Of a stretch of 64,000 nucleotides of DNA, positions 3,982-63,946 are shown piece by piece. A program made the translations under genes and the position numbers. Within the stretch, counting starts at the first letter, position 1; every line of letters begins with the position of its first letter. The notes beneath the pieces are model-generated. The model saw only the letters and a list, made by a program, of their open reading frames with translations. It searched no databases and was not told the origin of the DNA. The stretch comes from Eledone cirrhosa (Eukaryota). The stretch lies in assembly GCA_964016885.1 (NCBI GenBank), contig OZ024741.1, positions 328,972,001 to 329,036,000 on the forward strand, read 5' to 3'.

Positions 3982-5720
3982 ATAAATTGTAAATATTGTG
4001 AAATGTTCTGGAGAATCGATGCAAACAAGATTTAAATATTTCCTTTTTTTTTGTTAATAAATGTTTCTACTTTTTGGCACAAGGCCAGCAATTATCCCAG
4101 TGCATTACTGGTACTTCATTTTATCGACCCCGTAAGGATGAAAGGCAAACTTAGCCTCGGCGTGATTTGAACTCAGACCGTAAAGGGGCGTAACTCTATG
4201 CTGCAAGGCATTCTACCAGTACTGCCAATCCACCGCCTTTTTGTGCTAATAATATTACCAGGATTGGTAATTATATGAAAGATTTCTTCAATACAGAAAT
4301 TACAAATTCTTGAGAGAGCCATATTTTGGTTAACTGGCGCTTTCGATATACGTCGCCAAGAGATCGAATAGTCAGTGTTATTGTCTTTTAAAGACCAAAT
4401 TAATTGAGGTTGTGAATTTTTTGTCCGATCGTTTGAAAGTATGTTTATGATTATACCAACGGTCCTTATATTTTGAAGAAGTAGCTGCTATATGATTATA
4501 TAATCTATCTCTAGTTTTTATGGGGCATTTGTATACTAAATTTCTATCAAGGCAATTATTCTGTAAAGGGCATGATATGTTATTTCTGCAATTACATTTT
4601 CTAATATTGTTTACAGATAGGGTATTATTATTTATGCATTCGTTATTATTATTATTATTATTATGTGTAATGTTATTAGTTATATTGTTATTGCTATTTG
4701 AGTTTATTTGGGTTGAGTTTAATTTTAAATTCCTATTATTAATTCTCGCAATATTCCGGGCTATATTCATAGTAGTAGAGTAAGAGAGCTTGACTGTATG
4801 TCTGTTAAAAATGGGGTGATACTTATGGGACTTAGGAAAACATTTATCTAGAGGCTTAAATAATTGGTGTGCTAAAGGTGTCTTAATTCCTAATGAAATT
4901 GGAGGTGAATACCAAATTATATTTCTAGTTCTAGCTTTTTTATTTGATTTATTATTTTGGTTAATTTTTGTTTATTATTAATATTATAATAGACTTTAGG
5001 GGGTTGGTGTATTATTCTTATCCGTGTAGTTAATTTTATTATTGTATCCAGCTCTGTGTAGAGCGTCATTGTAATATTCTGCTTTGTTATCAAATATATT
5101 TTTATTAGCTGAGAATCTAGATAGTCTTTGCTGGACACTATTAACTATAGCCTTTTTAACATTTCTAGAGTGGTTAGAGTAGAAGCTAACGTAGTTTAGG
5201 TTTTCATTAATCTTATTATGGAACGGGTAATATAGGCCTGAGTTAAGGTTTAGTGTAACATCTAAGAAATTAACAATTTTATTATCATTTTCTATTTCTA
5301 ATTTAAGGCCATAATTACTAAAAAAAGTCTATAATAATTATCTTTTTAACTATTGTTATGTTTATCAACTATAAATAACGCATCATCACGATGCAATTTC
5401 CGGCAATTTCCTATGTAAGGCATTAAGAATGAATATTCCACCAAATCCGTGACCTGAGCTGAGTCAGAAGAGCCCATTGTAATAGCGAAATTGTTCTGTG
5501 TACCAGCTCTAGTCCAGAGATCATTGTTAAATTCAATAAGAGTTTTTCGTGCAGCTAATATAATGTTTATTTCTTCGCTAGATAAATCAGTATACTTTGA
5601 TGCGTATATTAGTGCTTTATTATGTAAATTAGGAGTTATTGAAGAATAGTAATTAGCTATATCAATTTGTATAAATTGTGTATTATTTTTAGATTTAATG
5701 TCTAGAAACTTAATGTCTAT
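3982..5720 (-). pseudogene. PLE RT/GIY-YIG ORF remnant, frameshifted and interrupted by a SINE at 4063-4237
   Basis: ORF 4378-4770 plus motifs read in adjacent frames. Confidence 0.85.
4063..4237 (-). mobile_element. SINE S1, near full length, inserted in the PLE ORF
   Basis: Reverse complement begins ggcggtggattggcagt (A-box-like) and contains gagttcaaatc and the S1 tail. Confidence 0.85.
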
Positions 5721-13625: not shown

Positions 13626-16600
13626 AGTTGCATTTATCTTGCTTTATGTTCATACAAGTTATCACCAAGTCACAACCAGTGACCTCAAGAGACAACAAGG
13701 TCCGCCATGTTCAAGAAAGAACATACATACTCACACATGCATCTTTAGTGTTTAGACTTGTGATGTACTTATATTGACAGAATCTTCCTTAGTATATGGG
13801 CAGTTCCCATTAGTACTATCTTTTGTATTTCTCCTATACGCGGGTTTCCTGGGATTTGCGATAAGTAATCATTAGACCCCTTAGGTATCATTCCCAGAGC
13901 GCCTACAACCACTGGTATTGTTTTAGTTCTCAATTTCCACATTTTTCCAATTTCTATCTCCAGGTCCTTATACTTGCTCAATTTTTCAAATGTTTTTATA
14001 GATACATTCTTGTCTATTGGAACAGACATATCAATTAGCAGGCATACCATCTTTTTAAAGTCCTTCAGTATTATATCAGATCTATTTGCATCTATTTTTC
14101 GGTCTGTTTGGATGCTAAAGTTCCACAAGATTGAGATGTGATCTTTTTAAAGTATGGGAGGTGGTTGATGCTCCCACCAATTCTTTTGATGGGGCAGGTC
14201 AAAATGCTTACACATTATCCAATGTATGTATTGTGCAGCTCTGTCATGCCTGTTTAGGTATTCGGTTGGAGCTATAGGACTGCACATTGAAAGTATATGG
14301 TCAATGGTCTCTGGTTGTTTTTTGCATACACGGCATAATGGGCTGCATCCATTTTTTATTATGTTGGCTTGGTAATTTTTTGTTGGCAGACACTGATCTT
14401 GTGCTGATATAATCAGTCCTTCAGTCTCCGATTTCAGTCCAGAGGATGCCAACCACTGATGGGTTAAAGTTTTGTCAACATCAGGATTGTTAGCTCGCTC
14501 TGGGTATTTTCCATACAGAGGCTTTTCTTGCCATTTCTTAGCCAGTTTCTGTAGCAGTTCTTTCTTTGCAGTTACTTTTACCTGCTTTGCTTTTTCTGTG
14601 TTTTCCACTTCAGCAGTAAATGGGACTTCTGAAATTTGTAGTCCATTACTGTATCTTTGTGCATCTTTTGTAATGGGATATGATCTTTTGATGCTTTCGT
14701 GTTTCAAAACGAGTTTGATCATCCAATCGTGTGATTCCCTTAGATATGTAGATAATCCATTTGTTGCAGTTTTCAACGCAATGTCTAACTGGATTAACCC
14801 ATGTCCTCCTTCTTTTCTAAGGAGATATATTCTATCTATATCTGCCTTAGGGTGATGCATTCTGTGCATGGTTAAGAATTTTCGAATTTTTGTATCGAGC
14901 CTACGGATCTCTGTGCTTAACCAGTTGATGACATTGTAACTGTAGGTTACTACTGGTATGGCAGGCGTGTTTATGACATCGATCCTATTCCTTGCATTCA
15001 ATTCTGTTCTTAAGATTGCTCTTACTCTGCGGTAACATTCCTTCCTTATCCTTTCCCTCATTGTCGAGTGCTTGATTCCCTCTCCTTCACAAACACCTAG
15101 ATATTTGTAAGTTTTTTCTTGATCAAGTTCTCTTATCAAGTTCTCCCGATCAAGATTAATGTCTGAACTCTTCAGCAGCTTTCCTCTGGTGAACGTTGCT
15201 TTGGTGCATTTATCTAGTCCAAACTCCATTTTAATGTCATCACTGAACTGCTCCACAGTGGATAATAGCCCTTGCAATTGTTCATCATTTTTTGCAAATA
15301 GTTTCAGGTAATCCATGTAGAACAAGTGATGAATGGTTTTGTCATAGACTTTATATCCATGTTTTGTTTCATTGAGCATTTTCCTTAATGGTATAAGTGC
15401 GATGCAGAATAAAAGCGGTGATAAAGAGTCACCCTGAAAAATTCCACAATTAACATTAACTTCTCCAGCTTCCAGTGATTTTGTTTCACTATTCAAAAGG
15501 AGTGTTGTTTTCCATGTCTTCATACTGAATGACAAAAACCTCCTGACAACGGGGGATATTTTGAAAATCTCTAAACATTTATCAATCCAACTGTGTGGCA
15601 AACTATCGAATGCTTTTTTATAATCTATCCAAGCAATCGATAGATGTTTGTGTCTATTATGACAATCTTCCAGTATCATTTTGTTAACCAGAAGCTGATC
15701 CTTACAGCCATATGAGCCTCGTTTACACCCTTTCTGCTCAATGGGAAATAGGTCATTTGTTATCAGGTGGTCATATGTGTATTCAGTTAGGACTGATGTT
15801 AAAATTTTATACATTGTGGTCAAGCAAGTTATCGGTCTGTAATTTTTGGGATTGTTTGTCTCATCATTCTTCGGAAGCAGGAATGTAATGCCGTTAACTA
15901 GCCATGATGATATCTTTTCTGACTCCTTAACTATTTCATTGTAAAGTTGGGCTAACAGCTCATGAGACTCTGTGAAGGCATTTATCCAAAAGTTTTGTAT
16001 TTTGTCTTTTCCTGGGGATTTCCATTTGCTGGTTTTTCTTAGAGCCAAGCGCAACTGTTCAACCGTTATATTTTCCCATGTTTGTTCCTCAAGATGAGCT
16101 GTATCTTTCATTTGTCTGTCTATCCATGGGGCATGTATGTTATGAACTTTTTCATCGGTCCAGATCTTTTCCCAGAATTCTTGCACTTCCTCCTTGGGTG
16201 GTGTGATTTAGCAGTTATTGTTGACTTACCAATTTTTCTGTAGAAGTTTCTTTGGTTGTTTTTGAACATATTATTGTCCTTATAGAATCTAGATCGTTTT
16301 TCAAAGCGCCTTATACGAGCAGCTTTGGCCGACACTTTTTGCTTGATTATTTCTATCAGCATGTCTATGTCACTTGTTGATTTTATACTGTACTTTTTTT
16401 TCAATTTTCTAAGTTTAGTTTGTTTAACATGTTCACCTACTTTGTAGTTTGTTAAAATTTCTATGTCAGATCGGAGAAGGTTTATTTGGCGATTGATGTT
16501 CTCTTGCCAAGTAGATTTCTTGTGGGAATTCCTTTGTTTTTTCATCTTCACTCCACATAAGTGAGTGGTGACTTTAGCCGATGCATAATAGAGATGATTT

Positions 16601-17590
16601 AAATCAGTAATGTTTAGTTTGTTTTGATGATAATGTTTTTGAGAATTATGTTAGTCTTGTGTATTATCTTTTGGTTCTGTTTGGAGTTCTGGATCTTAGG
16701 GAGGGTGTCTCGTTGCCCCATGTCAGATTCTTTCATTTTCATCCATTCGATCATAATTTCATCCTTCAAGTTGGCAAGTTCATTCTCATTCATTTCTTTA
16801 TCATTTACGATCTCATTATTTTCATTTGGAGTTTCATCTTGAGCATGCACTCCCTTCACTTTTTCGATCCTTTCTTTAATTTGTTCTGTTGCCAGTGATT
16901 CCTCCCCAACCCTGGGATTCGAAGTGTTACGATTTACCTCGTTTTCACTGACACATGTTTCATTATCCCTTCGCTGACTTTGTGCTAATAGCTTGATCTG
17001 ATCAATTTCTATATCAGTTAGTAACTTTTTTCTTACAATATTTCTACGTATATTGGCTAGTTTGTTACTGTCAATATAGCCTCTGTTTTCGGGATGTTTC
17101 TTTTTCCAGTTGATATATGTCTGTTCTGTATTCGATGTATTTGATGGGTAGTACATGGCAGTGTAGAAAGCCTCAAGGACTTCTTTATTATCTTCCCTTG
17201 ACCATTTTTCTCTCTTTTTCTTTGGATTTCTTGGTGGTGAGCATGGAGGGCCAACAGTAGGAGTATTCCGGTTATGGGAGGTTTCCAGCTCCGAAGTGAT
17301 GGGAAGGTTTGAACCATTAGCTGATTTTTCGACCCCTGTCTGGTTCCTCTCTGAGGGACGCGGCCCTTTTTTACCCGGGTGACGGCCGATCCGGTATGAG
17401 ATTTTATCATTAGACATTTACTTTATTTTGTCGCGTTTTATCCTTATCCGCCAAGGGGTAATCATTTCGTGTTACCACTTCTAGGACGAGTGTAAACCAA
17501 GACTAGAGGGGTCGTTCTCCCCTAGAGACACGGCTATTCCCCGCCGGCTGCCATCCCGGCATTTCTTGGTCACGGGGTTTTCTTCTTGTT
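13624..17590 (-). mobile_element. Non-LTR retrotransposon, R4/Dong-like (RT + zinc finger + restriction-like endonuclease), near full length
   Basis: Single ancestral ORF with KSPGKDKI, WIDYKKAFDS, GIFQGDSLSPLLF, LFYMDYLKL, CRVC..ETIDHI..C, RHD, NRSD..LIDMSVP and KLSKYKDL. The 3' end abuts (TAA)n. Confidence 0.93.
13769..17417 (-). pseudogene. Dong/R4 polyprotein broken into four ORF pieces (16614-17417, 16120-16551, 14147-16186, 13769-14128)
   Basis: Collinear ORFs separated by stops or frameshifts; catalytic YMDD is YMDY. Confidence 0.9.
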
Positions 17591-23268: not shown

Positions 23269-23280
23269 TTATATATATAT

Positions 23281-23969
23281 ATCTAATGATTCTATGGACT
23301 TACTTTTTATATATTGCTCTGATTATTAATTATTTAATTAATTCGTCATTGAGCCACATCGTGAATGGTTGCCAAAAACATATATATATATATATCTATG
23401 GCTTTGTCTAGTTTATATGTATATACCCTTTACATTTTATATACTCCCATAAGGTTGAGTAAAACTTTAGGCAGTATTCGGCTGCGCCTTCTAGCAACCA
23501 GCCTACTCGCCGACAGGCACCAATCACAAACTCTCTGCCTTGACCACTAGCCACGTGATGATTCTTAGGTATTTTGAATTCGTTTGTGGCGGGGATCATC
23601 TAAGAAAAATCTCAAGTTATCTCCTAATGATTTCCAACGTCGTTGATTTATCCAGGATCAGGTATATCCAAAAATGGAATGAAATCGCCGGGGGTAGATG
23701 TATTTTGATGATTTTGGTAACTTTTATTTTGTCCCTAATTATGTATGGTTAACTATATGTATAGTCAATTTCTATGGGCTATCAGAAATGCTAGGTAAAT
23801 TTTCTGTAGTTATGAGTCGCGGCTAAAAAGGTATATCATTTATCTATTGTTTCTTCATAAGTATATTTTAAACTTATAGCCTCGTTTAGATGATTTTTTG
23901 TGCGGTTGATTTATGCTGATTGGGGAAAGAAATACTGTATACATATTATCTAATGATTCTATGGACTTA
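23281..23969 (+). mobile_element. Diverged monomer of the ~670-bp HHR repeat with 22-bp terminal redundancy
   Basis: Collinear similarity to the 42.8-44.5 kb unit; atctaatgattctatggactta at 23281 and 23948; HHR remnant at ~23618-23700 (CTAATGA-tttcca..tggaat-GAAA). Confidence 0.75.
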
Positions 23970-24027
23970 ATTTACACACACACACACACACACAGAGAGA
24001 CACACACACACACACAGAGACACACAA

Positions 24028-24069
<42 letters not shown>

Positions 24070-24071
24070 GC

Positions 24072-24340
24072 CTGGAGGCACGTGGTAACGGTGTTGGACT
24101 TACGATCATAATGTCGTGGCTTCCATTCCTGGTGTTGTGTTCTTGAGCAAAACATCATTTCACGTTGCTCCAGTATACTCAGCTGAAAATGAGTACCGGA
24201 AATAGCTGGGGGTTTAACCCTGCGATGGACTGTCATCCAGTGCAGGGGGAAAGGGTCTTGTGCGCTAAGTCACTTCAGGGTATGACACCGTGATAAGCAC
24301 TGACCAAATGACCTTTCTTGCTTAAGACAGACTTTAGACT
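24072..24340 (+). mobile_element. tRNA-derived SINE (second family)
   Basis: tRNA-like head, then tgtgttcttgagcaaaacat and aaccctgcgatggactgtcatccagtgcagggg, typical of conserved SINE central domains. Confidence 0.7.
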
Positions 24341-31383: not shown

Positions 31384-31404
31384 ATATATATATATATATA
31401 TATA

Positions 31405-33015
31405 TATTAAAATATAGAGAAAAATACTGCAGGTCGCACATGGAAACATGTAATAAAATAAGTCCCTCATCAGTGATTTGCCGAAGATCATAGATATTTC
31501 ATTGCATTAAAAATCATATATCTCACTTCGGTGCAATAATAACCAAAATAAGTTATTAGGACAATTAAAACGCGTAAAGCGAGTGAGACAGGAGAACAAC
31601 AGAAAAATTAGCATACCTTAGGGGAGAAACAAGCTTCAAAAATTATTCGTTTAGCATAAGCTAGGTGAATATATGAGAGCTGAGAGAATAGAACCAACAC
31701 AAACGAAGGCCATTGAGCAGAGAGAGAAAAAATAGCGTTCGTGAGTGCAGGATGAAATGAAGAGAAGAGGGAGAAAAACAGTGAGTGAGTGAAAGTGTGA
31801 GGAAGAGTTAACGGACAAGACAGAGGGGGAGAAACAGAGAGAATGGGGGAACAGTAAGAGAGAGAGAAAAAAACACAGAATCGCAGTGGTAAATATATGT
31901 ATTCAAATATAGAGAAAAATACTGCAGGTCGCACATGGAAACATGTAATAAAATAAGTCCCTCATCAGTGATTTGCCGAAGATCATAGATATTTCATTGC
32001 ATTAAAAATCATATATCTCACTTCGGTGCAATAATAACCAAAATAAATTATTAGGACAATTAAAACGCGTAAAGCGAGTGAGACAGGAGAACAACAGAAA
32101 AATTAGCATACCTTAGGGGAGAAACAAGCTTCAAAAATTATTCGTTTAGCATAAGCTAGGTGAATATATGAGAGCTGAGAGAATAGAACCAACACAAACG
32201 AAGGCCATTGAGCAGAGAGAGAAAAAATAGCGTTCGTGAGTGCAGGATGAAATGAAGAGAAGAGGGAGAAAAACAGTGAGTGAGTGAAAGTGTGAGGAAG
32301 AGTTAACGGACAAGACAGAGGGGGAGAAACAGAGAGAATGGGGGAACAGTAAGAGAGAGAGAAAAAACACAGAATCGCAGTGGTAAATATATGTATTAAA
32401 ATATAGAGAAAAATACTGCAGGTCGCACATGGAAACATGTAATAAAATAAGTCCCTCATCAGTGATTTGCCGAAGATCATAGATATTTCATTGCATTAAA
32501 AATCATATATCTCACTTCGGTGCAATAATAACCAAAATAAATTATTAGGACAATTAAAACGCGTAAAGCGAGTGAGACAGGAGAACAACAGAAAAATTAG
32601 CATACCTTAGGGGAGAAACAAGCTTCAAAAATTATTCGTTTAGCATAAGCTAGGTGAATATATGAGAGCTGAGAGAATAGAACCAACACAAACGAAGGCC
32701 ATTGAGCAGAGAGAGAAAAAATAGCGTTCGTGAGTGCAGGATGAAATGAAGAGAAGAGGGAGAAAAACAGTGAGTGAGTGAAAGTGTGAGGAAGAGTTAA
32801 CGGACAAGACAGAGGGGGAGAAACAGAGAGAATGGGGGAACAGTAAGAGAGAGAGAAAAAAACACAGAATCGCAGTGGTAAATATATGTATTAAAATATA
32901 GAGAAAAATACTGCAGGTCGCACATGGAAACATGTAATAAAATAAGTCCCTCATCAGTGATTTGCCGAAGATCATAGATATTTCATTGCATTAAAAATCA
33001 TATATCTCACTTCGG
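31405..33015. repeat. Tandem array, ~495-bp unit, ~3.25 near-identical copies
   Basis: aatatagagaaaaatactgcaggtcgc recurs at ~31411, 31906, 32400 and 32895. Confidence 0.95.
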
Positions 33016-33050
33016 GCTTCCGTTATATATATATATATATATATATATAT

Positions 33051-33240
33051 AACGGAAGCCCGAGCTCGAAGAAAAAGAGAAAAAAAACGGAAAAAACCGT
33101 ACGCAGGACAGCTTACCGACGACGGCTTCGGCGCGTCGATTAGTGCTTTTCCGGTAGCGTGGCGGCGCCGAAGCCATCGTCGGTAAGCTGTCCTGCGTTC
33201 GGTTTTTTTTCCCTTTTTCTTCGAGCTCGGGCTTCCGTTG
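33051..33240. repeat. GC-rich hairpin (~85-bp arms)
   Basis: aacggaagcccgagctcgaagaaaaa..cagcttaccgacgacggcttcggcgc pairs with gcgccgaagccatcgtcggtaagctg..ttcgagctcgggcttccgtt. Confidence 0.9.
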
Positions 33241-33949: not shown

Positions 33950-36900
33950 CTACAGGATGGTATACAGAGAAGGCCCACTTACACGAGCCATTCTCGCCAC
34001 TATCACCCACCTTTCATAAAACTGCCTGTGGCCAAGCACCTCTCTCTCCATTCTTATCCTTCTTCCGAAGTGATATCGGAAGAAGTAGACCAGACTATGG
34101 CCAGAGAGGAAGTTGCCTGACCTCAGACCTTTCAATCGTGTCCACCAAACAACCTCTTTCAACATGGCTATTACGCACAGAAAAACCGCCTTTGCTTCCT
34201 TTGTGAAGAGGGGAGGCGGTTTGATTGTCATCACGGACTCGGCAGTCTATTTAATCGGCGCCACCCGCGACAGCAGTCGTTCGGCGTAGCCCCACAGATC
34301 AGCCACGCCCGGACATTGCACCAATGCGTGCGCAACGGTTTCTTCGTGACGCACGCATCTAGGGCAAATCTTTTTTGAGGGATCCCTGCCCGGGCGCCCG
34401 TGTCTGTAGAGCCTCTCTCGAACGGGTAGAGCCCCCCGGTAGCACTGCCAGGCCAGTGACTTCTGGAAGTTGTCCATTGGTCCTGGGCCGAAAGTCCTAC
34501 CGAACAGGCTGGCCAGTTCGTCTTCTTCCATGTCCAGCGACTCTCCAAGGGTGTCATCGCCCCTGCTAGCCACCAGCCCTCTATAGAATGATGAGGTGGA
34601 TTCTCTACCGATGGCCTGGCCCGCTTGCCAGAGAGCCCTGGGCGCCTGAGCACACTCAGTGTGCCAGTCTCCCAGTTTTCCGGATCTTTGCTTGACCCAG
34701 GACTGTAGCTCGGTGAGCGAGACGAGTCTCGGAAAGGCTCGTTTCACGAACGGAGCCCACACCGGTTGACCAGTGAGGAATACCTGTAGGTGCCGTAGCC
34801 TTAATGCGTGCCTACGCATCATCAACCACGGCATCCCCAGCCCTCCTTTCGAAGGTTGTTGGCAGCAGATGGATCTTCTCACCATAGGAGGGCGCTTCTT
34901 CCAAAGAATTTGGAAGAGCATGCGTTCCATGGTGGTGAGTGTTTCCTTAGTGCAAGGCACGACAGTCAGGCGGTAGTAAGTGACGGACGCTATGTAAATG
35001 TTCGCCACCTCCGCCCGGCCTTTTAGGGACAGCTTACACTTGGCCCATTTCTGGGTTAGTGCAAACACCTTGTTCGTAACCTCGTTCCAGTTCTTTTCCA
35101 CCTGGAGGTCCGGTCCAAACCAGACCCCAAGCAACTTTACCGGGCCCTCCGTCCAGTGTCCGACGACACCGTCAGGAGGCATCGGTCTGCCTCTTCACGT
35201 TCCGAGTTGCAGCCCGATGGATTTTTCCCGGTTCAGTTTCGCTCCTGACAACCTTTCGTACTCCTCCAGTAAGGTACCGATCGCCTCGATCTCCGAGTCG
35301 GTCGATACCATTACTGTTACGTCATCGGCGTAGGCCGACACCGCTTTGCTCAATCCTCCAACTTCCTCAGTAAAGGCTCGAGAGTCAATACGTACAGAAG
35401 GGAGGAGAGAGGGCACCCCTGTCGAATGGATCGTGTGATTTCGAACGGCTTCGAAAGGTAGCCGTTCACCTTGATCCTAGAACAGATGTGGTTGCTATGT
35501 AAGGCAGTGATCCAGCCTCTGAAAACAGGACCGACCCAGCCGCCGCTAGCACCGCATCCAGGTAACCATGGTCGACCCTATCGAAGGCCATAGACTGAAC
35601 CAAGTTGATCAGGGCCCCACCGAAGCCGGATTTGTTGCCAACCCTCTCTATGATGTATCGCATGAGGTGGAGGTTATCGTGAATGGACCTGGATGGGATA
35701 GCACATGTCTGCGCATCTCCCACCCGGCCACCCACGACAAGCGCCAACCTCTTTGCTAACACCTTGGCCAAAATCTTTAACTCTGTGTTTAGCATGGTTA
35801 TGGGCCGAAAATTATTTATACTATCTCCCTTGTTCTCGTCCTTCCTCACCAGCGTGACTACGCCCTTGGCTACAGAACAAGGAATTCTCCCGTCCTGCTG
35901 CCAATTGCAGTAGACCGCTTCGAGACCTGGAGATTTGCGTCTGCTGCATTGGCTCAGCGCATCTCCGATCTCATCAGCCGAGATTGGTCCCTCGCAGGAC
36001 TCTGCCTCTTCGCTCGAGAGACGCGGCAGGCCGTCGAGGTATGGACCGAAATCCACGCCCCCGCCCGGACCCTCGCCTCCCCCGAACAATCGGGCAAAAT
36101 GACTTTGAAAGGCCTCGCACATCTGCTTAGGCTCCCGGATCACCCGTCCATCTTCGTCTTGCAACGACCGGATGGTGGATCGATTTCCACTCTTAGCTTC
36201 TGTCACGCGGGCCCAGCCAACGGCTTTGGCCCCCTCATTACCTAGAGCACGTATTTTACTTCGAATGACGCAGCCTTCGTGCTTTGCATCGAAAAACTGG
36301 TTCAAGGCCGTCCTCGATGCCAGCACTCTGGCCACATCTTCGCTCTTGATTGCCTCTTCTAATTTACCTGTTAATTCTTTCTCGTTTCTATTCCTATCGG
36401 CAGCTAACATCTTGCTATAACTTATTGATTCTGTTCTAATCTCTCTTTTGAGAGATGCCCACCATCGGTTGTTGACGATTGCACCCGTCAACCTCTCCTT
36501 AACTAATCTGCTAATCCGGTTTCTGTAAGTCTCTTTTGCCGGTAAAGACAAATTAAGTTTCCAGTAACCGGGACCCTGTTTATGTGTTTTCTCGAGATTG
36601 ACTACGCAGGTCACTAATTTGTGATCCGTGTAGCCAACCGTGCGCATTTCTGGACAGCTTAATATGTCCCTATCCTTACTTCTAATTAAGAATCTATCTA
36701 AGTACGATCTATATTGACCACTGTGGTTTCTCCAAGTCCAGGTAGGCACAGTTGGAAAATCTAGTCGATATCTATCGACCAAGTTAAAACGGTTGAGTAA
36801 CCTCTTGAGGATGTTACACCCCCCTCTATTAGGACATGCTCCTGCATAGTCCCAACGTGCATCTAGGATGTCATTCCAATCCCCCGCTAGAAGCAGGGAA

Positions 36901-37301
36901 CGCGACGTTCCCAGAAAAGTCTCCAAACGCTGGAAGAAGTCGGGCCGTTCAGCTCCGAAAGGGGAGTAGACGGCAACCAGTCTCAAGGCCGCACTTTCAC
37001 TACTGCCAACGTCTAGCACCAACAAACGACCCTCCGGGTCCGAGTGCACAACCTGTACGGCAAGACCCAGGTGTTTTTGCAGCAGTACGACAACCCCACC
37101 CCCAACTCCAGGTTGACAGAGAGATGCATGCACCTCAAAGTCATCGAAGGTGGGGGCCAGCTGCCGCACGACGCTGATTTGAGTCTCACAGATAACCATT
37201 ACATTTATACTACATGACCTGAGGTCATTTAGAAGCTTTGCTTGCTTGCAAATTGAGCCCAGGCCACGTGCATTCAAACATCCTACTCTTAACACATCCA
37301 T
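33950..37301 (-). pseudogene. Tx1-type ORF2 (APE-RT), disrupted
   Basis: Pieces 35466-37301, 35195-35416, 34247-35182 and 33950-34234; apparent in-frame deletion after KSPGL. Confidence 0.9.
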
Positions 37302-37627
37302 GTGGGCGGCAGAGCCAAAAGAGAGTGTAGAGACCTACCTTTCCGCTTCCCGGGGTTCGGGTTGCACGACTTCCATGGGGTCGGGAGTGTTGGGTGAAGG
37401 GGTGTCTTGTTGTGGTGTGGGGTCGTCAGTGTGTGGTGGGGTTGGGGTGTTTGGAGTTGTGTTGGGGAGGGGAAGGGGAGGGGGAAAGCTTTTTAGTAGG
37501 ACGCGGTTTATGGGTTTGACAGAGGGTGGTCCTACGTCCTCCTTAAAATCCTTTTTTAGTTTTTGGTAGAGGTTCATTGGGATCTTTATTAATTTTAAAT
37601 GTGGGTAGTTTTCTGAAGAAACAAAGT

Positions 37628-39010
37628 TTACACCTTCGGTTTGTACCGAAGGATTATTGTATATGAGTTTAATTTATTATTGTTTCTGTTGATGTAAGTA
37701 TAGTGTAATGTCTTTTTTTCGGATGGTGTGAGTGTTTCGAAGAGGGGAGGGGCAGGTTTGGTTTTGTTTGTTGCTGGAGGGGTGTTTTCTGTTTTGTTGG
37801 ATTGTGTTGAGATTTGGGTGGGGGTTGTTTGGCCTTGTGTGTTTTGCACATGTTTTCTTTTTTTCCTTTTAATCTGTCTGAAGGACTCCGTTTCTTCCTC
37901 CGAATTCGTTGGGTTATCTTCAGTGTTGGAGGGAAGAGGTATGTTTGCTGGTAATGTTTCCGTGTTGGTTTTCTTTGTGGGGAAGATGGATGTCACTATG
38001 TTAGACTGTGTTGTGTGTTGTGTCTGCGGTGGTTGTGTTGTTTTATTGAGTGAGGGGTTGGGTGGGCCTGTATTTTGTTTTGGGGTAATGTGTTGTGACT
38101 GTTTGTGTTGTGGTGGTGGTGTAGTTTTACTGAGGGACGGGTTGGCTGGGACTGAGTTTTGTTGTTTGTTTATCTGTTGTGGTGGTGGTGGTGGAGCTGG
38201 TGTTGGTAGCAGGGTTTTCTTTTTGTTGAGTTGGGGACAAGCGGCCTTCAGGTGCCCTCTGCCTGCACAGATATGGCAGGACGGCCTTCTCCCCTCCACG
38301 CTAATGTTTATATACCCGTGGCCCTCTAATAGGATTCTGTCGGGTATTTGGGCGATGCGTTCAGGCTTCATTTGCACTACCAGCTCTATACCTGTTCCAC
38401 TGAACGCATTGCCTGTGGTTTTCCCAATGGAAATCACGTTGTCATTCACTGGATCGATGAAGCCAGCTATGAGCCAGCAGTAGTCCACATCTGGCATCAT
38501 TGCATCCAGCCATATGCGTTGAGTTCTTTTACCCATATAAGATGGATAAAAGGTAAAATTTTTCGAACGAATCGGTGACAAAGCACATTTTTTTGCCGCC
38601 GATTCGTTCTTCATGATAATTGCTAGGCTTCCATACAGTCTGTCTTTTCTTATGAAAGTGGTTTCATTAAGTACTTCTGTGGGTACTGTTTTGATATCTG
38701 CTTGAGTTGGCTGTTCAGGTTTTTTTGTACTGTTGTTGATGGTGCGAAACTTGACCGTTCGGCTTTCAATGTCTTTGGTGAATTCTTGAGGCATTTTTAC
38801 CGATAAAATACCATTCTCTCCTTCACTTATGTATTGTTTGGCGTCTGTGATTCTTCGTGCCACATCTGAAATATTTTCCGGTATATAAGTCAAAGATTTC
38901 TTTGTTGTCTGTGCAAATGAAATCTTGTCGTCTGCTTTGCTTTCTGTTATGGTGTTATTTTCAAATGTCATTTTTGTGTTTGTTGTGTCTTTGTTTGTGT
39001 TATTTTTCAA
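37628..39010 (-). CDS. Tx1-type ORF1 (CCHC zinc knuckle, Pro/Thr/Gln-rich tail); probably continuous with 39007-39363 via a homopolymer frameshift and with 37335-37577
   Basis: 460-aa ORF with CX2CX4HX4C upstream of ORF2. Confidence 0.8.
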   Translation of the reverse strand: MKNNTNKDTTNTKMTFENNTITESKADDKISFAQTTKKSLTYIPENISDVARRITDAKQYISEGENGILSVKMPQEFTKDIESRTVKFRTINNSTKKPEQPTQADIKTVPTEVLNETTFIRKDRLYGSLAIIMKNESAAKKCALSPIRSKNFTFYPSYMGKRTQRIWLDAMMPDVDYCWLIAGFIDPVNDNVISIGKTTGNAFSGTGIELVVQMKPERIAQIPDRILLEGHGYINISVEGRRPSCHICAGRGHLKAACPQLNKKKTLLPTPAPPPPPQQINKQQNSVPANPSLSKTTPPPQHKQSQHITPKQNTGPPNPSLNKTTQPPQTQHTTQSNIVTSIFPTKKTNTETLPANIPLPSNTEDNPTNSEEETESFRQIKRKKRKHVQNTQGQTTPTQISTQSNKTENTPPATNKTKPAPPLFETLTPSEKKTLHYTYINRNNNKLNSYTIILRYKPKV

Positions 39011-39635
39011 ATTTTTTTTTTCTCCTTGTTGGAATCCATGTCCAGATTTGTGTTTTCGTCATTTTTTTTTTTCGCAGATTCGTCTGTTTTTATTTTAATT
39101 TTTCCTTCCTTCTCTATGACGTTAGTTGAGAAGGAAGGGGGGACTAAAGCGTGCGAGCTTACAACTCTTACCGCTGTCCCCCCACCACTATTTTCGTTCG
39201 CTGCGTTTAACATTTCTGTTAGACGATTGAAATTTTTTGCCACAAAATTTTTTAAAACAGGTTTTTCACCTCTAGGAGGGGTAAAGATGAGCTGACCCAC
39301 CGCCTGACAGTTCAGACGGGGGGTCAAGCTACACAATTGTATCAAAATTAAATTTGAACTCACAAAATTTCCGCAATAAATTTGAACAAAACTTCTGCGC
39401 GAAGTGAATTACATCCACACTGTAGAACAGACGACAGCTAGATTAATATAGATATAGATATAGATAGGTAAATATACACGGGTGTGTATGATTGTGTATA
39501 GAAGATTATATTAATAAGAGGAATTCCAAATTTGTCTGATTTACTCGTTTTATTTACAATCCTTTAAAATATATATAATATATAATGGTATTAAAATGAA
39601 ATAGTATGATAGAATATTAAATTCTAAGTGTTAAT

Positions 39636-39674
39636 TGAACAAGTACTTTCATGCTTTCGCAATCTTCAGGTTCA
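39636..39674 (-). ncRNA. Minimal type I hammerhead ribozyme motif in the 3' pLTR of the Neptune-like PLE
   Basis: tgaac-CTGAAGA-ttgc-gaaa-gcat-GAAA-GTAC-TT-gttca. Confidence 0.88.
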
Positions 39675-40057
39675 TGATATGTGGTGACAGTCGAGTTTGC
39701 AATTTTCAACTGTAATGAGATGGGTAAATTTCCTACCTTTTATACATTTTATACAGAGAAAAGTGGCTCCAGAATGCAAAGCCCTGTAAACTGTATTTCG
39801 ACCAATCAGTGTGTAGTTTCACTGAATTACTACAGCTGATTGGTTTAAGCGTCACGGCTGGTTGAGCATGTTAACGACCAATAGTCATATCCAACGTATC
39901 AATTGTTTTGCTTTTTTTGCAATGATGAAAATAGCATTTTCTATTAATCATCACCATCAACATCACTTTTATTATTATTATTATTATTGTTGTTGTTGTT
40001 GTTGTTGTTAGTGGTCGTGGTCATAGTGGTAGTAGAAGTAATACCCCTAGGCGTTAT

Positions 40058-42295
<2,238 letters not shown>

Positions 42296-42843
42296 GTTAT
42301 CATATACATAAAATTAAAGATATATATATATGTTGCAACTGTTCACTTTTAAGCTCAATGAAGAATTAATAAATTAAAATAAAAATTTCAGAGCATTATA
42401 TCATAAATCATGTCTATAGAATCATCAGATATTAAAATATATACTATTTCTTCTTCTAATTAGCATAATTAACCATATACAAAATCAAATCTAGCAAGCT
42501 TTAAGAATACATTTTCTTATGGGGAAATCTCCGACAAACAATTGACCGTAGCCTCTTCGCGGCAGCCCCGTTCCATTATTTATCCAACATTTCGGCAGCA
42601 TGCAGAATCCGACCAAATATACCATCAACCACACACAATTAGTAGTAAAATTAAACTTAGAAGAAATGCGCACATACCGTAATTATATCTCTACCATGGT
42701 TTCTTCCTTATTTAGGACATCCAAATAATATGAATTATTATCCAAATAATATGAATTATCCACAGTTACATAGCGATTTTAGCCATTTTTGAATAAAAAT
42801 TTGGCGCGATCGGTTAGAAAAACTAAATGTCTGATTTTGAGTT

Positions 42844-42922
42844 TATCTCCTGAAGAATCCTAAGTCTGGATAATTCATATTATTTGGATGTCCTAAATAA
42901 GGAAGAAACCATGGTAGAAATA
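42844..42922 (+). ncRNA. Type I HHR motif, unit 1
   Basis: tatctc-CTGAAGA-atcct..aggaa-GAAA-CCATGG-TA-gaaata. Confidence 0.7.
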
Positions 42923-43515
42923 TAATTACGGTATGTGCGCATTTCTTCTAAGTTTAATTTTACTACTAATTGTGTGTGTTTGATGGTATATTTGGTCGGA
43001 TTCTGCATGCTACCGAAATGTTGGATAAATAATGGAACGGGGCTGCCGCGAAGAGGCTACGGTCAATTGTTTGTCGGAGATTTCCCCATAAGAAAATTTA
43101 TTCTTAAAGCTTGCTAGATTTGATTTTGTATATGGTTAATTATGCTAATTAGAAGAAGAAATAGTATATATTTTAATATCTGATGATTCTATACACATGA
43201 TTTATGATATAATGCTCTGATTTTTTTATTTTGATTTATTAATTCTTCATTGAGCTTAAAAGTGAACAGATATGCAACATATATATATCTTTAATTTTAT
43301 GTATATGATAACCTTTATATTTAATAATCTCCCAATTGGTTGAGATTAAATTTGGCGATATATGGCTGCGCTTTCTAGCAGCAACACTACCCGCCGTAAG
43401 CAACCAATCACACACTTTCTCTGTGGCTGGTACACAGCTACATAGCGATTTTAGTCATTTTTGTATCTAAATTTGGCGCGATCGGTTAGAAAAACTAAAT
43501 GCCTGATTTTGAGTT

Positions 43516-43593
43516 TATTTCCTGAAGAATCCTAACTCTGGATAATTCATATTATTTGGATGTCCTAATAAGGAAGAAACCATGGTAGAGATA
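43516..43593 (+). ncRNA. Type I HHR motif, unit 2
   Basis: tatttc-CTGAAGA-atcct..aggaa-GAAA-CCATGG-TA-gagata. Confidence 0.75.
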
Positions 43594-44184
43594 TAATTCC
43601 GGTATGTGCACATTTCTTCTAAGTTTAATTTTACTACTAATTGTGTGTGGTTGATGGTATATTTGGTCGGATTCTGCATGCTGCCGAAATGTTGGATAAA
43701 TAATGGAACGGGGCTGCCGCGAAGAGGCTACGGTCAATTGTTTGTCAGAGATTTCCCCAAAAGAAAATTTATTCTTAAAGCTTGCTAGATTTGATTTTGT
43801 ATATGGTTAATTATGGTAATTAGAAGAAGAAATAGTATATATTTTAATATCTGATGATTCTATACACATGATTTATGATATAATGCTCTGATTTTTTTAT
43901 TTTAATTTATTAATTCTTCATTGAGCTTAAAAGTGAACAGTTGCAACATATATATATCTTTAATTTTATGTATATGATAACCTTTATATTTAATAATCTC
44001 CCAATTGGTTGAGATTAAATTTGGCGATATATGGCTGCGCTTTCTTGCAGCAAGCCTACCCGCCGTAAGAAACCAATCACACACTTTCTCTCTGGCTGGT
44101 ACACAGCTACATAGCGATTTTAGCCATTTTTTAATCTAAATTTGGCGCGATCGGTTAGAAAAACTAAATGTCTGATTTTGAGTT

Positions 44185-44262
44185 TATCTCCTGAAGAATC
44201 CTAACTCTGGATAATTCATATTATTTGGATGTCCTAATAAGGAAGAAACCATGGTAGAGATA
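44185..44262 (+). ncRNA. Type I HHR motif, unit 3
   Basis: tatctc-CTGAAGA-atcct..aggaa-GAAA-CCATGG-TA-gagata (perfect 6-bp stem I). Confidence 0.8.
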
Positions 44263-44576
44263 TAATTACGGTATGTGCGCATTTCTTCTAAGTTTAATTT
44301 TACTACTAATTGTGTGTGGTTGATGGTATATTTGGTCGGATTCTGCATGCTGCCGAAATGTTGGATAAATAATGGAACGGGGCTGCCGCGAAGAGGCTAC
44401 GGTCAATTGTTTGTCGGAGATTTCCCCATAAGAAAATTTATTCTTAAAGCTTGCTAGATTTGATTTTGTATATGGTTAATTATGGTAATTAGAAGAAGAA
44501 ATAGTATATATTTTAATATCTGATGATTCTATACACATGATTTATGATATATATATATATATATATTTATATATAG

Positions 44577-45567: not shown

Positions 45568-46407
45568 ATATAAAGAGATAAATATTTATATAAAAATAAA
45601 GATAAAGATAATAATGACAAAAATAAAAGCAAAGAAGGGGGGAAAAGAAGAAAAGAAAAGATACCCAAAATGGGAGGGAAGGAAGAAAACAAGAAATAGA
45701 AGAGGAATGAAGAAGAGGGGAGTGATATAGGTATTGGTTTTTGTGGGTAATTAAAAGGGTTTAGATACAACAAGAGGGTATACAATGCACAGTGGAATCA
45801 GACAACCAGAAATGGTATTACATCGGAGCGACTGGGAATACATTTAAAGCCCGTTGGTATACACACCGTTACGCAATGAAACATTCCCACCATCGTTATG
45901 TAACTACCCTTGCAAACAAGACCTGGCAACTGAGGAAAGTAACCATCAATACACCCTGAAGTGGAAAAAATTATCGAACGCGCCCCCATATCGGAGTGGT
46001 ATGAGAAGTTGTCGATTATGTGACCTTGAGCTGTTCCACATTTTATGTTACTCAACAATAAAATCGAAAGATCAATTTATTGTAACCATAGACTCAAAGA
46101 GAGGTTTTCGCACTACAAGTGCAAATCGAACCCTTAACCTCTTACTACCAACTGACAAACTGCATATACTTAGACTTTATACCCTCTTGTTGTATCTAAA
46201 CCCTTTCAATTACCCACAAAAACCAATACCTATATCCCTCCCTTCTCCTTCATTCCTCTTCTATTTCTTCGTTTTCTTCCTTCCTTCCGTCCCCTTTTTG
46301 GCTATCTTTTCTTTTCTTCTCCCCCCCCCCCTTCTTTGCTTTTATTTTTGTTATTATTATCTTTATCTTTATTTTTTATATATATATTTATCTCTTTATA
46401 TCTCCCC

Positions 46408-63875: not shown

Positions 63876-63946
63876 TATTTTATTATGCGCATTTCAAATA
63901 CAAATATCATCATGGGATGATATTTGCGTTCTCATCAGATAAAATA
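63876..63946 (-). ncRNA. Type I HHR motif with long stem II
   Basis: tattttat-CTGATGA-gaacgcaaatatcatc..gatgatatttgtattt-GAAA-TGCGCA-TA-ataaaata. Confidence 0.85.

Follow-up and report, generated by a model that had tools for sequence, protein, structure and literature searches.

Retrozymes and their proposed link to PLEs have already been published (PMC7229834; bioRxiv 10.64898/2026.07.22.740005). As described in the accessible text of both reports, metazoan non-LTR retrozymes (Cervera and de la Pena 2020, PMC7229834; Li, Clavereau and Pollet 2026, bioRxiv 10.64898/2026.07.22.740005) are non-coding, AT-rich units with a type I hammerhead, which occur as monomers, dimers and arrays and for which PLEs are proposed as helpers; the repeat analyzed here agrees with them in these respects. 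Its units are 666-697 bp long, compared with 170-400 nt in PMC7229834 and up to 972 bp in bioRxiv 10.64898/2026.07.22.740005, and, unlike the retrozymes described in these texts, they have a stem II of ~50 nt and a long conserved rod. The accessible parts of the two reports give no two-site end map, helper clade or cis-signal. The route by which animal retrozymes enter DNA and the target of recognition by PLE RTs are presented as proposed, not demonstrated, in the accessible text of the papers cited here.

Several features of PLEs recur in the present repeat. In the Hydra clade (Craig et al. 2021, PMC8557442), as here, insertions comprise partial tandems, an inverted 5'-truncated copy and a one-ended tail, and the targets are (TA)n. 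The tail measures 30-40 in the accessible text of that paper and 101-126 nt here; its origin is ascribed there to endonuclease resolution, whereas here both ends adjoin copies of one predicted RNA hairpin. In addition, the present repeat encodes nothing, unlike the PLEs described there. The minimal hammerheads of PLEs (Cervera and de la Pena 2014, PMC4209133, as far as accessible) likewise have a palindromic short stem III, an extended stem II, a U3:A8 variant and opposite-strand pairs 100-700 bp apart. Unlike these, the motif studied here lies mid-unit in a free non-coding element, and the DNA 3' end is located about 310 nt downstream of the predicted cut site. MRC1 and other non-autonomous Chlamys elements (PMC8557442) are also partners of PLEs, have pLTRs and insert in multiple head-to-tail copies, but according to the text available they share 3' sequence with their autonomous partners, whereas the four subfamilies (A-D) of the present repeat share only a short structural motif with an autonomous element, H1. 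No sequence match of the A-D unit to a known pLTR was found. The literature search found nothing on cephalopod retrozymes, the A-D family or the hairpin, although Repbase and the supplements of PMC8557442 and of the 2026 preprint may hold such families. What is new here is one old non-coding superfamily with a complete hairpin pair at both end sites.

The focal copy and its superfamily

The window (the whole stretch of 64,000 nucleotides analyzed, from Eledone cirrhosa) lies in a microsatellite-rich genome of 3.0 Gb. The initial annotation of this DNA had described the focal copy as a diverged, permuted monomer, with a 22-bp terminal redundancy, of the unit found in an array at 42.8-44.5 kb. 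The collinear similarity to that unit was borne out over the whole length: positions 23281-23962 aligned with 43849-44532 of the array, with identity at 463 of the 641 base pairings (72%; 64% of 725 columns), and the alignment score of 358 compares with a maximum of 70 among 100 dinucleotide shuffles. The end repeat was also recovered, starting at 23280 and 23947 with the period of 667 already noted (exact over 23 nt, 26 nt with one mismatch, 33 nt at 94%), and it is indeed unit-internal sequence, not a target-site duplication. Two other proposals did not hold. The focal copy was thought to begin at a different phase, but its 3' end (~23973) is in phase with that of the array (44551, unit position 34); the apparent permutation is thus a product of the chosen unit start. 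Furthermore, the near-equal periods of 667 and 670, taken as a sign of conserved unit length, are a coincidence: compared with the ~697-bp unit of subfamily A, the focal copy is shorter by ~35 nt, with losses of 9 nt at 23611 and ~25-27 nt at 23717. The features of the focal copy and of the array are as follows.

23281..23973, + strand: one-armed insertion of subfamily A, comprising one unit and ~26-36 nt from a second lap, with a short-type 3' end (unit position ~26-34)
23280..23306, + strand: 5' redundant stretch (putative second-lap cDNA) matching 23947-23969, with TA microhomology joining the (TA)n target
23316..23354, + strand: bulged hairpin 1 (GCTC-TGA...TCA-TT-GAGC), candidate RT handle, directly 3' of the short end site
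23443..23460, + strand: bulged hairpin 2 (CTC-CC-N4-GG-TT-GAG), directly 3' of the long end site
23480..23530, + strand: conserved GGCTGCGC..CTAGCA..CCAATCA block, from the alignment
23618..23702, + strand: type I hammerhead motif, mutated (G5 to A and two stem I changes), predicted cut after 23696
23718..23930, + strand: long imperfect rod hairpin, conserved in A, B and C, the foot of which (its base) is deleted in the focal copy
23947..23973, + strand: 3' terminal stretch (priming-site end)
42285..42738, - strand: subfamily-B inverted arm, long end (unit position 144) at 42285
42761..44551, + strand: subfamily-B direct arm of 2.7 units, short end (position 34) at 44551

The focal copy is a member of subfamily A of a non-coding hammerhead superfamily with thousands of copies. 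The unit lengths are ~697 (A), 670 (B), 666 (C) and 688 bp (D), with a mutual identity of 68-79% and with intermediates, and the earlier suggestion of an old family with subfamilies thus proved correct. A search with the focal copy gave 4054 seed candidates in the genome, the best 40 of which were scored; copy counts are lower bounds, each drawn from the best 40. Among these, the 29 closest relatives, with a unit of about 697 bp, have 93.0% mutual identity and 91.5% identity to the focal copy. The window array belongs to the younger subfamily B (96.9% between insertions). Most subfamily-A insertions comprise one to two units, the focal copy being a monomer, while the window array has 2.7 tandem units and locus L140 has nine.

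The unit has a GC content of about 33% (base counts) and no ORF of at least 130 aa across it. No ORF with RT and GIY-YIG domains was found in the unit, and the repeat is therefore classed as PLE-mobilised, not as a PLE. The focal copy is probably an ordinary, dead member of a retrozyme superfamily. For its conserved block at 23480..23530, a promoter role would be a guess. A very high-copy SINE-like repeat is located to the right of the focal copy (24060-24330; contig depth up to ~5e5).

Hammerhead and rod

Each unit contains the parts of a type I hammerhead, namely stem I (TATCTC/GAGATA), CUGANGA, a long stem II, GAAA, a short near-palindromic stem III and GUA. Stem II (~50 nt) opens with a mismatch in A-C. 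Intact cores were observed in 32 of 44 hammerheads of subfamily A and in 17 of 19 mapped ones of B. The paired stem II arms and the CTAATGA core that had been reported for the focal copy are both present, but CTAATGA is not a trait of the subfamily: only 2 of the 44 subfamily-A hammerheads have it, and it is a private mutation of the focal copy. G5 is essential for the hammerhead, and the focal one is probably inactive because its G5 is replaced by A.

Compensatory changes were also examined (12 copies, four subfamilies). In seven of 14 named pairs both partners have changed; among them is C3:G8, replaced in D by U3:A8, a core variant described for PLE hammerheads (PMC4209133, accessible part); these represent a few events inherited by only 3-4 subfamilies, not 25 independent ones. 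No hammerhead match was obtained from Rfam at the gathering threshold, and the active fold was not obtained among minimum-energy folds of the motif alone (z +0.3 to -1.4). In the rod downstream of the cut site, 97.5% of cells are paired and 4 of 48 pairs show double changes, on a structure derived from the same alignment on which pairing was scored. Circular folds of the hammerhead strand had lower z values than those of the other strand in A (-4.3 vs -1.9) and B (-2.8 vs 0.0); no preference for the hammerhead strand was found in C, D or the focal copy.

Some further structures were noted. In subfamily A (L003, 1845-1940), the loop of stem III is able to pair with the core CUGAUG, forming an inactive rod that may serve a circular form as an off state. 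We also considered whether another hammerhead surrounds the 22-mer and rejected this, since no stems are present and the A consensus there reads CTAATGA. Elsewhere in the window, a type I hammerhead-like match occurs at 63944 on the minus strand and is present in L138 too. A 495-bp unit in 3.3 copies (99% alike) lies between (TA)n tracts at 31398-33015 on the minus strand and carries CTGATGA with GAAA upstream, possibly a rearranged hammerhead; the scan gave no canonical type I hammerhead match in this unit. A short GC-rich inverted repeat (33050-33230) is located beside this array.

End sites, predicted bulged hairpins and the probable helper

End positions are counted from unit position 1, which is the 22-mer. 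With the full query, 25 of 35 A-arm 3' ends fell at 34 and seven at 142-160, the others being at 12, 26 (the focal copy) and 413. An internal-fragment query placed 27 of 30 main-arm 3' ends at 26-34 and three at 142-162, and with a query placed downstream of the ribozyme, 22 ends were short, five were long (127-160) and three fell elsewhere (30 rows, two of them duplicates). The two sites are spaced 110-126 nt apart. The 5' ends are scattered, and because they vary, the redundancy ranges from about 26 nt (the focal copy, the shortest seen) to about 450 nt; such variable length is unlike an LTR.

These data bear on the origin put forward in the initial annotation, that is, permuted copies left by reverse transcription of a circular or multimeric RNA. 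Synthesis of more than one unit across the ribozyme junction stands, as 27 of 30 arms read through it. Random permutation, with priming anywhere on a circle, would explain copies exceeding unit length and junction read-through equally well, but with three differently placed queries the 3' ends lie at two sites (30 of 30 ends with the internal-fragment query), so the copies are not randomly permuted and we regard this version as the least credible of all those considered. The phases of genomic copies, by which that proposal was to be judged, came out fixed at the 3' end and variable at the 5' end.

In A, 11 of 14 head-to-head insertions combine a short end with a long one; the figures are 14 of 16 in B, where a segmental duplicate was left out, and 10 of 12 in C, where the query favoured long main arms. 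The exceptions are one A insertion (L224) with two short ends and six insertions with a broken or intermediate second end. In the subfamily-B insertion of the window, the array ends at the short site (44551) and the inverted arm at the long site (42285). This pairing is a PLE footprint. A fixed 3' end, a 5'-truncated partial tandem, an inverted 5'-truncated arm and a one-sided tail were all found, and this two-armed arrangement corresponds to that described for PLEs in the accessible text of PMC8557442. The same two-end rule is followed by N1, an autonomous Neptune-type PLE, in all five complete two-armed insertions fetched.

It is very probable that the repeat is a PLE-mobilised retrozyme. 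An origin at the DNA level, as a satellite, a Helitron-like rolling circle or the solo terminus of a coding element, could account for the lack of a strand-biased editing scar and for later tandem reshuffling in L140; against it stand the fixed 3' and ragged 5' ends, the (TA)n targeting, the inverted arms with a one-sided tail and the head-to-tail units without any ORF, and no PLE ORF was found continuous with the unit. We consider such an origin very unlikely.

Each of the five units inspected (focal, A, B, C and D) has exactly two copies of a predicted bulged hairpin motif, CTC-(stem-loop)-TT-GAG, both on the hammerhead strand and none on the opposite one. The hairpins are located at 37/161 in A, 38/150 in B and 38/156 in C, with ends at 34/160, 34/144 and 36/150, respectively. 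They thus begin 1-6 nt past the BLAST-defined ends; as the latter include TA microhomology, the true gap between end and hairpin is about 5-9 nt. Two or more such motifs appeared in 0 of 300 and 2 of 300 shuffled units, for a motif defined after sight of these sequences. Across the genome, the hairpin-2 pattern had 3336 matches, compared with 31 for a reversed control. Of the first 30 such loci, 29 are similar to A-D (one weakly) and the remaining one is the autonomous H1; a further 20 loci, chosen for unusual loops, comprise 18 A-D-like sequences (one weakly), a second Hydra family (L420) and an unrelated sequence.

By its motifs, H1 matches a Hydra-clade PLE. Long frames of 916-1039 aa with YRDD, CxCX5C and IVY..YIG are present in seven of eight fetched loci, with DKT in six and RWR in four, and the Hydra-clade features RWR, ADKTK, CNCRVSANC, IVY..YIG, a canonical hammerhead and (TA)n targets were all found. 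Its C-terminal GIY-YIG lacks two cysteines in the core, as the definition of Hydra requires. In its motifs and canonical hammerhead, H1 is thus like the Hydra clade as accessible in PMC8557442. H1 has both hairpins, 101 nt apart, in addition to the hammerhead, and the hairpin motif is present in the Hydra element L373/L415. Its arms end at reference position 92 (three) or 192-193 (25), with one elsewhere and four running into the next unit, and the CTC starts lie at 100 and 201; that is, 28 of 33 arms end 7-8 nt before a hairpin. Short and long ends are paired in all three complete two-armed H1 insertions.

Fixed ends just before hairpins that also mark Hydra-type ends likely identify both the copying enzyme and the signal it reads. 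We thus view the focal copy, with reasonable though not full confidence, as a decayed one-lap copy of a hammerhead repeat that was written into a TA/CA microsatellite by a Hydra-clade RT/endonuclease reading the hairpins. The helper would be a Hydra-clade relative; H1 itself need not have served the older subfamily A. A-D have nothing but this hairpin in common with an ORF-bearing Hydra element. Moreover, four subfamilies 20-30% diverged have kept the hammerhead, the long rod and two hairpin copies, which amounts to a natural experiment.

The helper may instead have been a Neptune-type or other non-Hydra PLE, the hairpins being incidental or an ancestral relic. In line with this, young N1 adjoins the array and obeys the same two-end rule, and the U3:A8 core is common to D and several Neptune-type families. 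On the other hand, Hydra families carry the hairpin at a matching distance from their own ends, and the tails of N1 and three other Neptune-type elements have none, which makes this alternative unlikely. Inspection of the N1 and L132-family ends did not reveal the motif; both have two fixed ends, and hence the two-end rule alone needs no hairpin. A profile of A-C (nhmmer/BLAST) was also compared with about 130 PLE loci (49 GIY-YIG loci and the window, 20 more, the N1 unit, 30 of the L132 family, 30 old Hydra and 4 H1), and only neighbouring insertions but no shared terminus were detected. As A-C have no primary-sequence similarity to the tested autonomous PLEs, including H1, the link to the helper rests on the short motif.

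The L132 family (L132 2030-5130, L295-L324) consists of PLEs that carry a short hammerhead-like motif and end at two 3' sites ~44 nt apart, without the CTC..GAG hairpin. It was rejected as the helper in spite of its similar last 10 nt because it has no hairpin, and L121 and L132 were rejected as pLTR links, being separate insertions in flanking (TA)n. In the window, a 5'-truncated Neptune/Nematis-type N1 copy is located at 39450-42120 on the minus strand; it carries a minimal hammerhead (39675), and a stop interrupts its GIY-YIG region. N1 is a young family that has a unit of 4204 bp, many ORFs of 775 aa, a further frame of ~496 aa upstream and two 3' ends ~55 nt apart. C-terminal fragments of Hydra-type PLEs are located at 4378-4971 (minus strand, with CxCX5C) and 45760-46100 (plus strand). 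The former has 104,672 candidates genome-wide, a few relatives of which have a bulged hairpin far downstream.

Template and proposed mechanism

Of 30 copies picked solely by the 36 nt after the cut, the 27 that read through the cut site indicate that the usual template was continuous at the junction, either ligated or uncut. The other three stop within 6 nt of it (0.7 expected), one of them having supplied the search pattern and two loci being duplicates; 5' ends thus cluster weakly at the cut site. Rare alleles are common to laps (27/202 in A, 25/112 in B) and to opposite arms of one insertion (14/111 in A, 23/104 in B), compared with 0.9% (A) and 0% (B) for separate insertions, L140 and one duplicate being left out of these counts. 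Such sharing fits one template molecule, and it could also arise from one source locus or from conversion between arms. The nine units of L140 are 96.8% identical to one another, and identity between separate insertions is 96.9%; since units within this array resemble one another no more closely than separate insertions do, long arrays do not give clean evidence of a rolling circle. No scar of RNA editing was found as a sense-strand bias of A>G over T>C (63 vs 90 in A, 32 T>C vs 34 A>G in B, p>0.38).

The architecture of a partial tandem or pLTR plus tail could result from a circle, although a circle is not required. The same PLE machinery may have used a linear template, either an uncut read-through transcript of more than one unit or repeated template jumps, with a hammerhead that rarely cuts. 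Repeated jumps or read-through are the usual assumption for pLTR formation, and the autonomous 4.2-kb N1 makes the same multi-unit two-armed arrays. In addition, PLE-type hammerheads cut poorly in vitro (PMC4209133, accessible part), one of nine Xenopus dimers is described as cut, and the active hammerhead fold is not the predicted minimum. This reading deserves attention, yet we find it doubtful: compensatory changes keep the hammerhead in four subfamilies, the near-palindromic stem III suits dimeric cutting, and the three of 30 arms that stop within 6 nt of the cut give a weak hint that cutting occurs. Other retrozymes, according to the text available of PMC7229834, accumulate as circles. 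On balance, we lean slightly towards a ligated circle over an uncut multimer or repeated jumps on linear RNA.

The mechanism that we propose would be as follows. A Hydra RT/endonuclease complex would bind the hairpins and break (TA)n, and each DNA end would then act as a primer at an AU-rich stretch that lies 5-9 nt upstream of one of the hairpins. The RT would run across the ribozyme junction for more than one lap and stop at a random point, after which the cDNA would be joined to the other arm or to the target. In the focal copy, synthesis may have stopped ~30 nt into lap two. As the hairpin lies 3' of its own priming site, only a copy of a full lap carries it, and the focal copy does so. 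The complete picture of a ribozyme RNA circle with a Hydra start signal, whose two hairpins place two RTs, one per end of the (TA)n break, at internal sites, is quite possible though not probable. If it is true, a circle without protein would inherit its start signal by a full lap only, both the helper and the cis-element of animal retrozyme mobilisation would be named, and a telomerase-related RT would use internal, structure-guided priming. The proposal yields a concrete enzyme, a template, a ~16-nt motif and another explanation of the PLE 'tail'.

Besides the elements described above, two sets of non-LTR retrotransposon-like ORFs were observed in the window, at 14147-17417 and 34247-39058, both on the minus strand.
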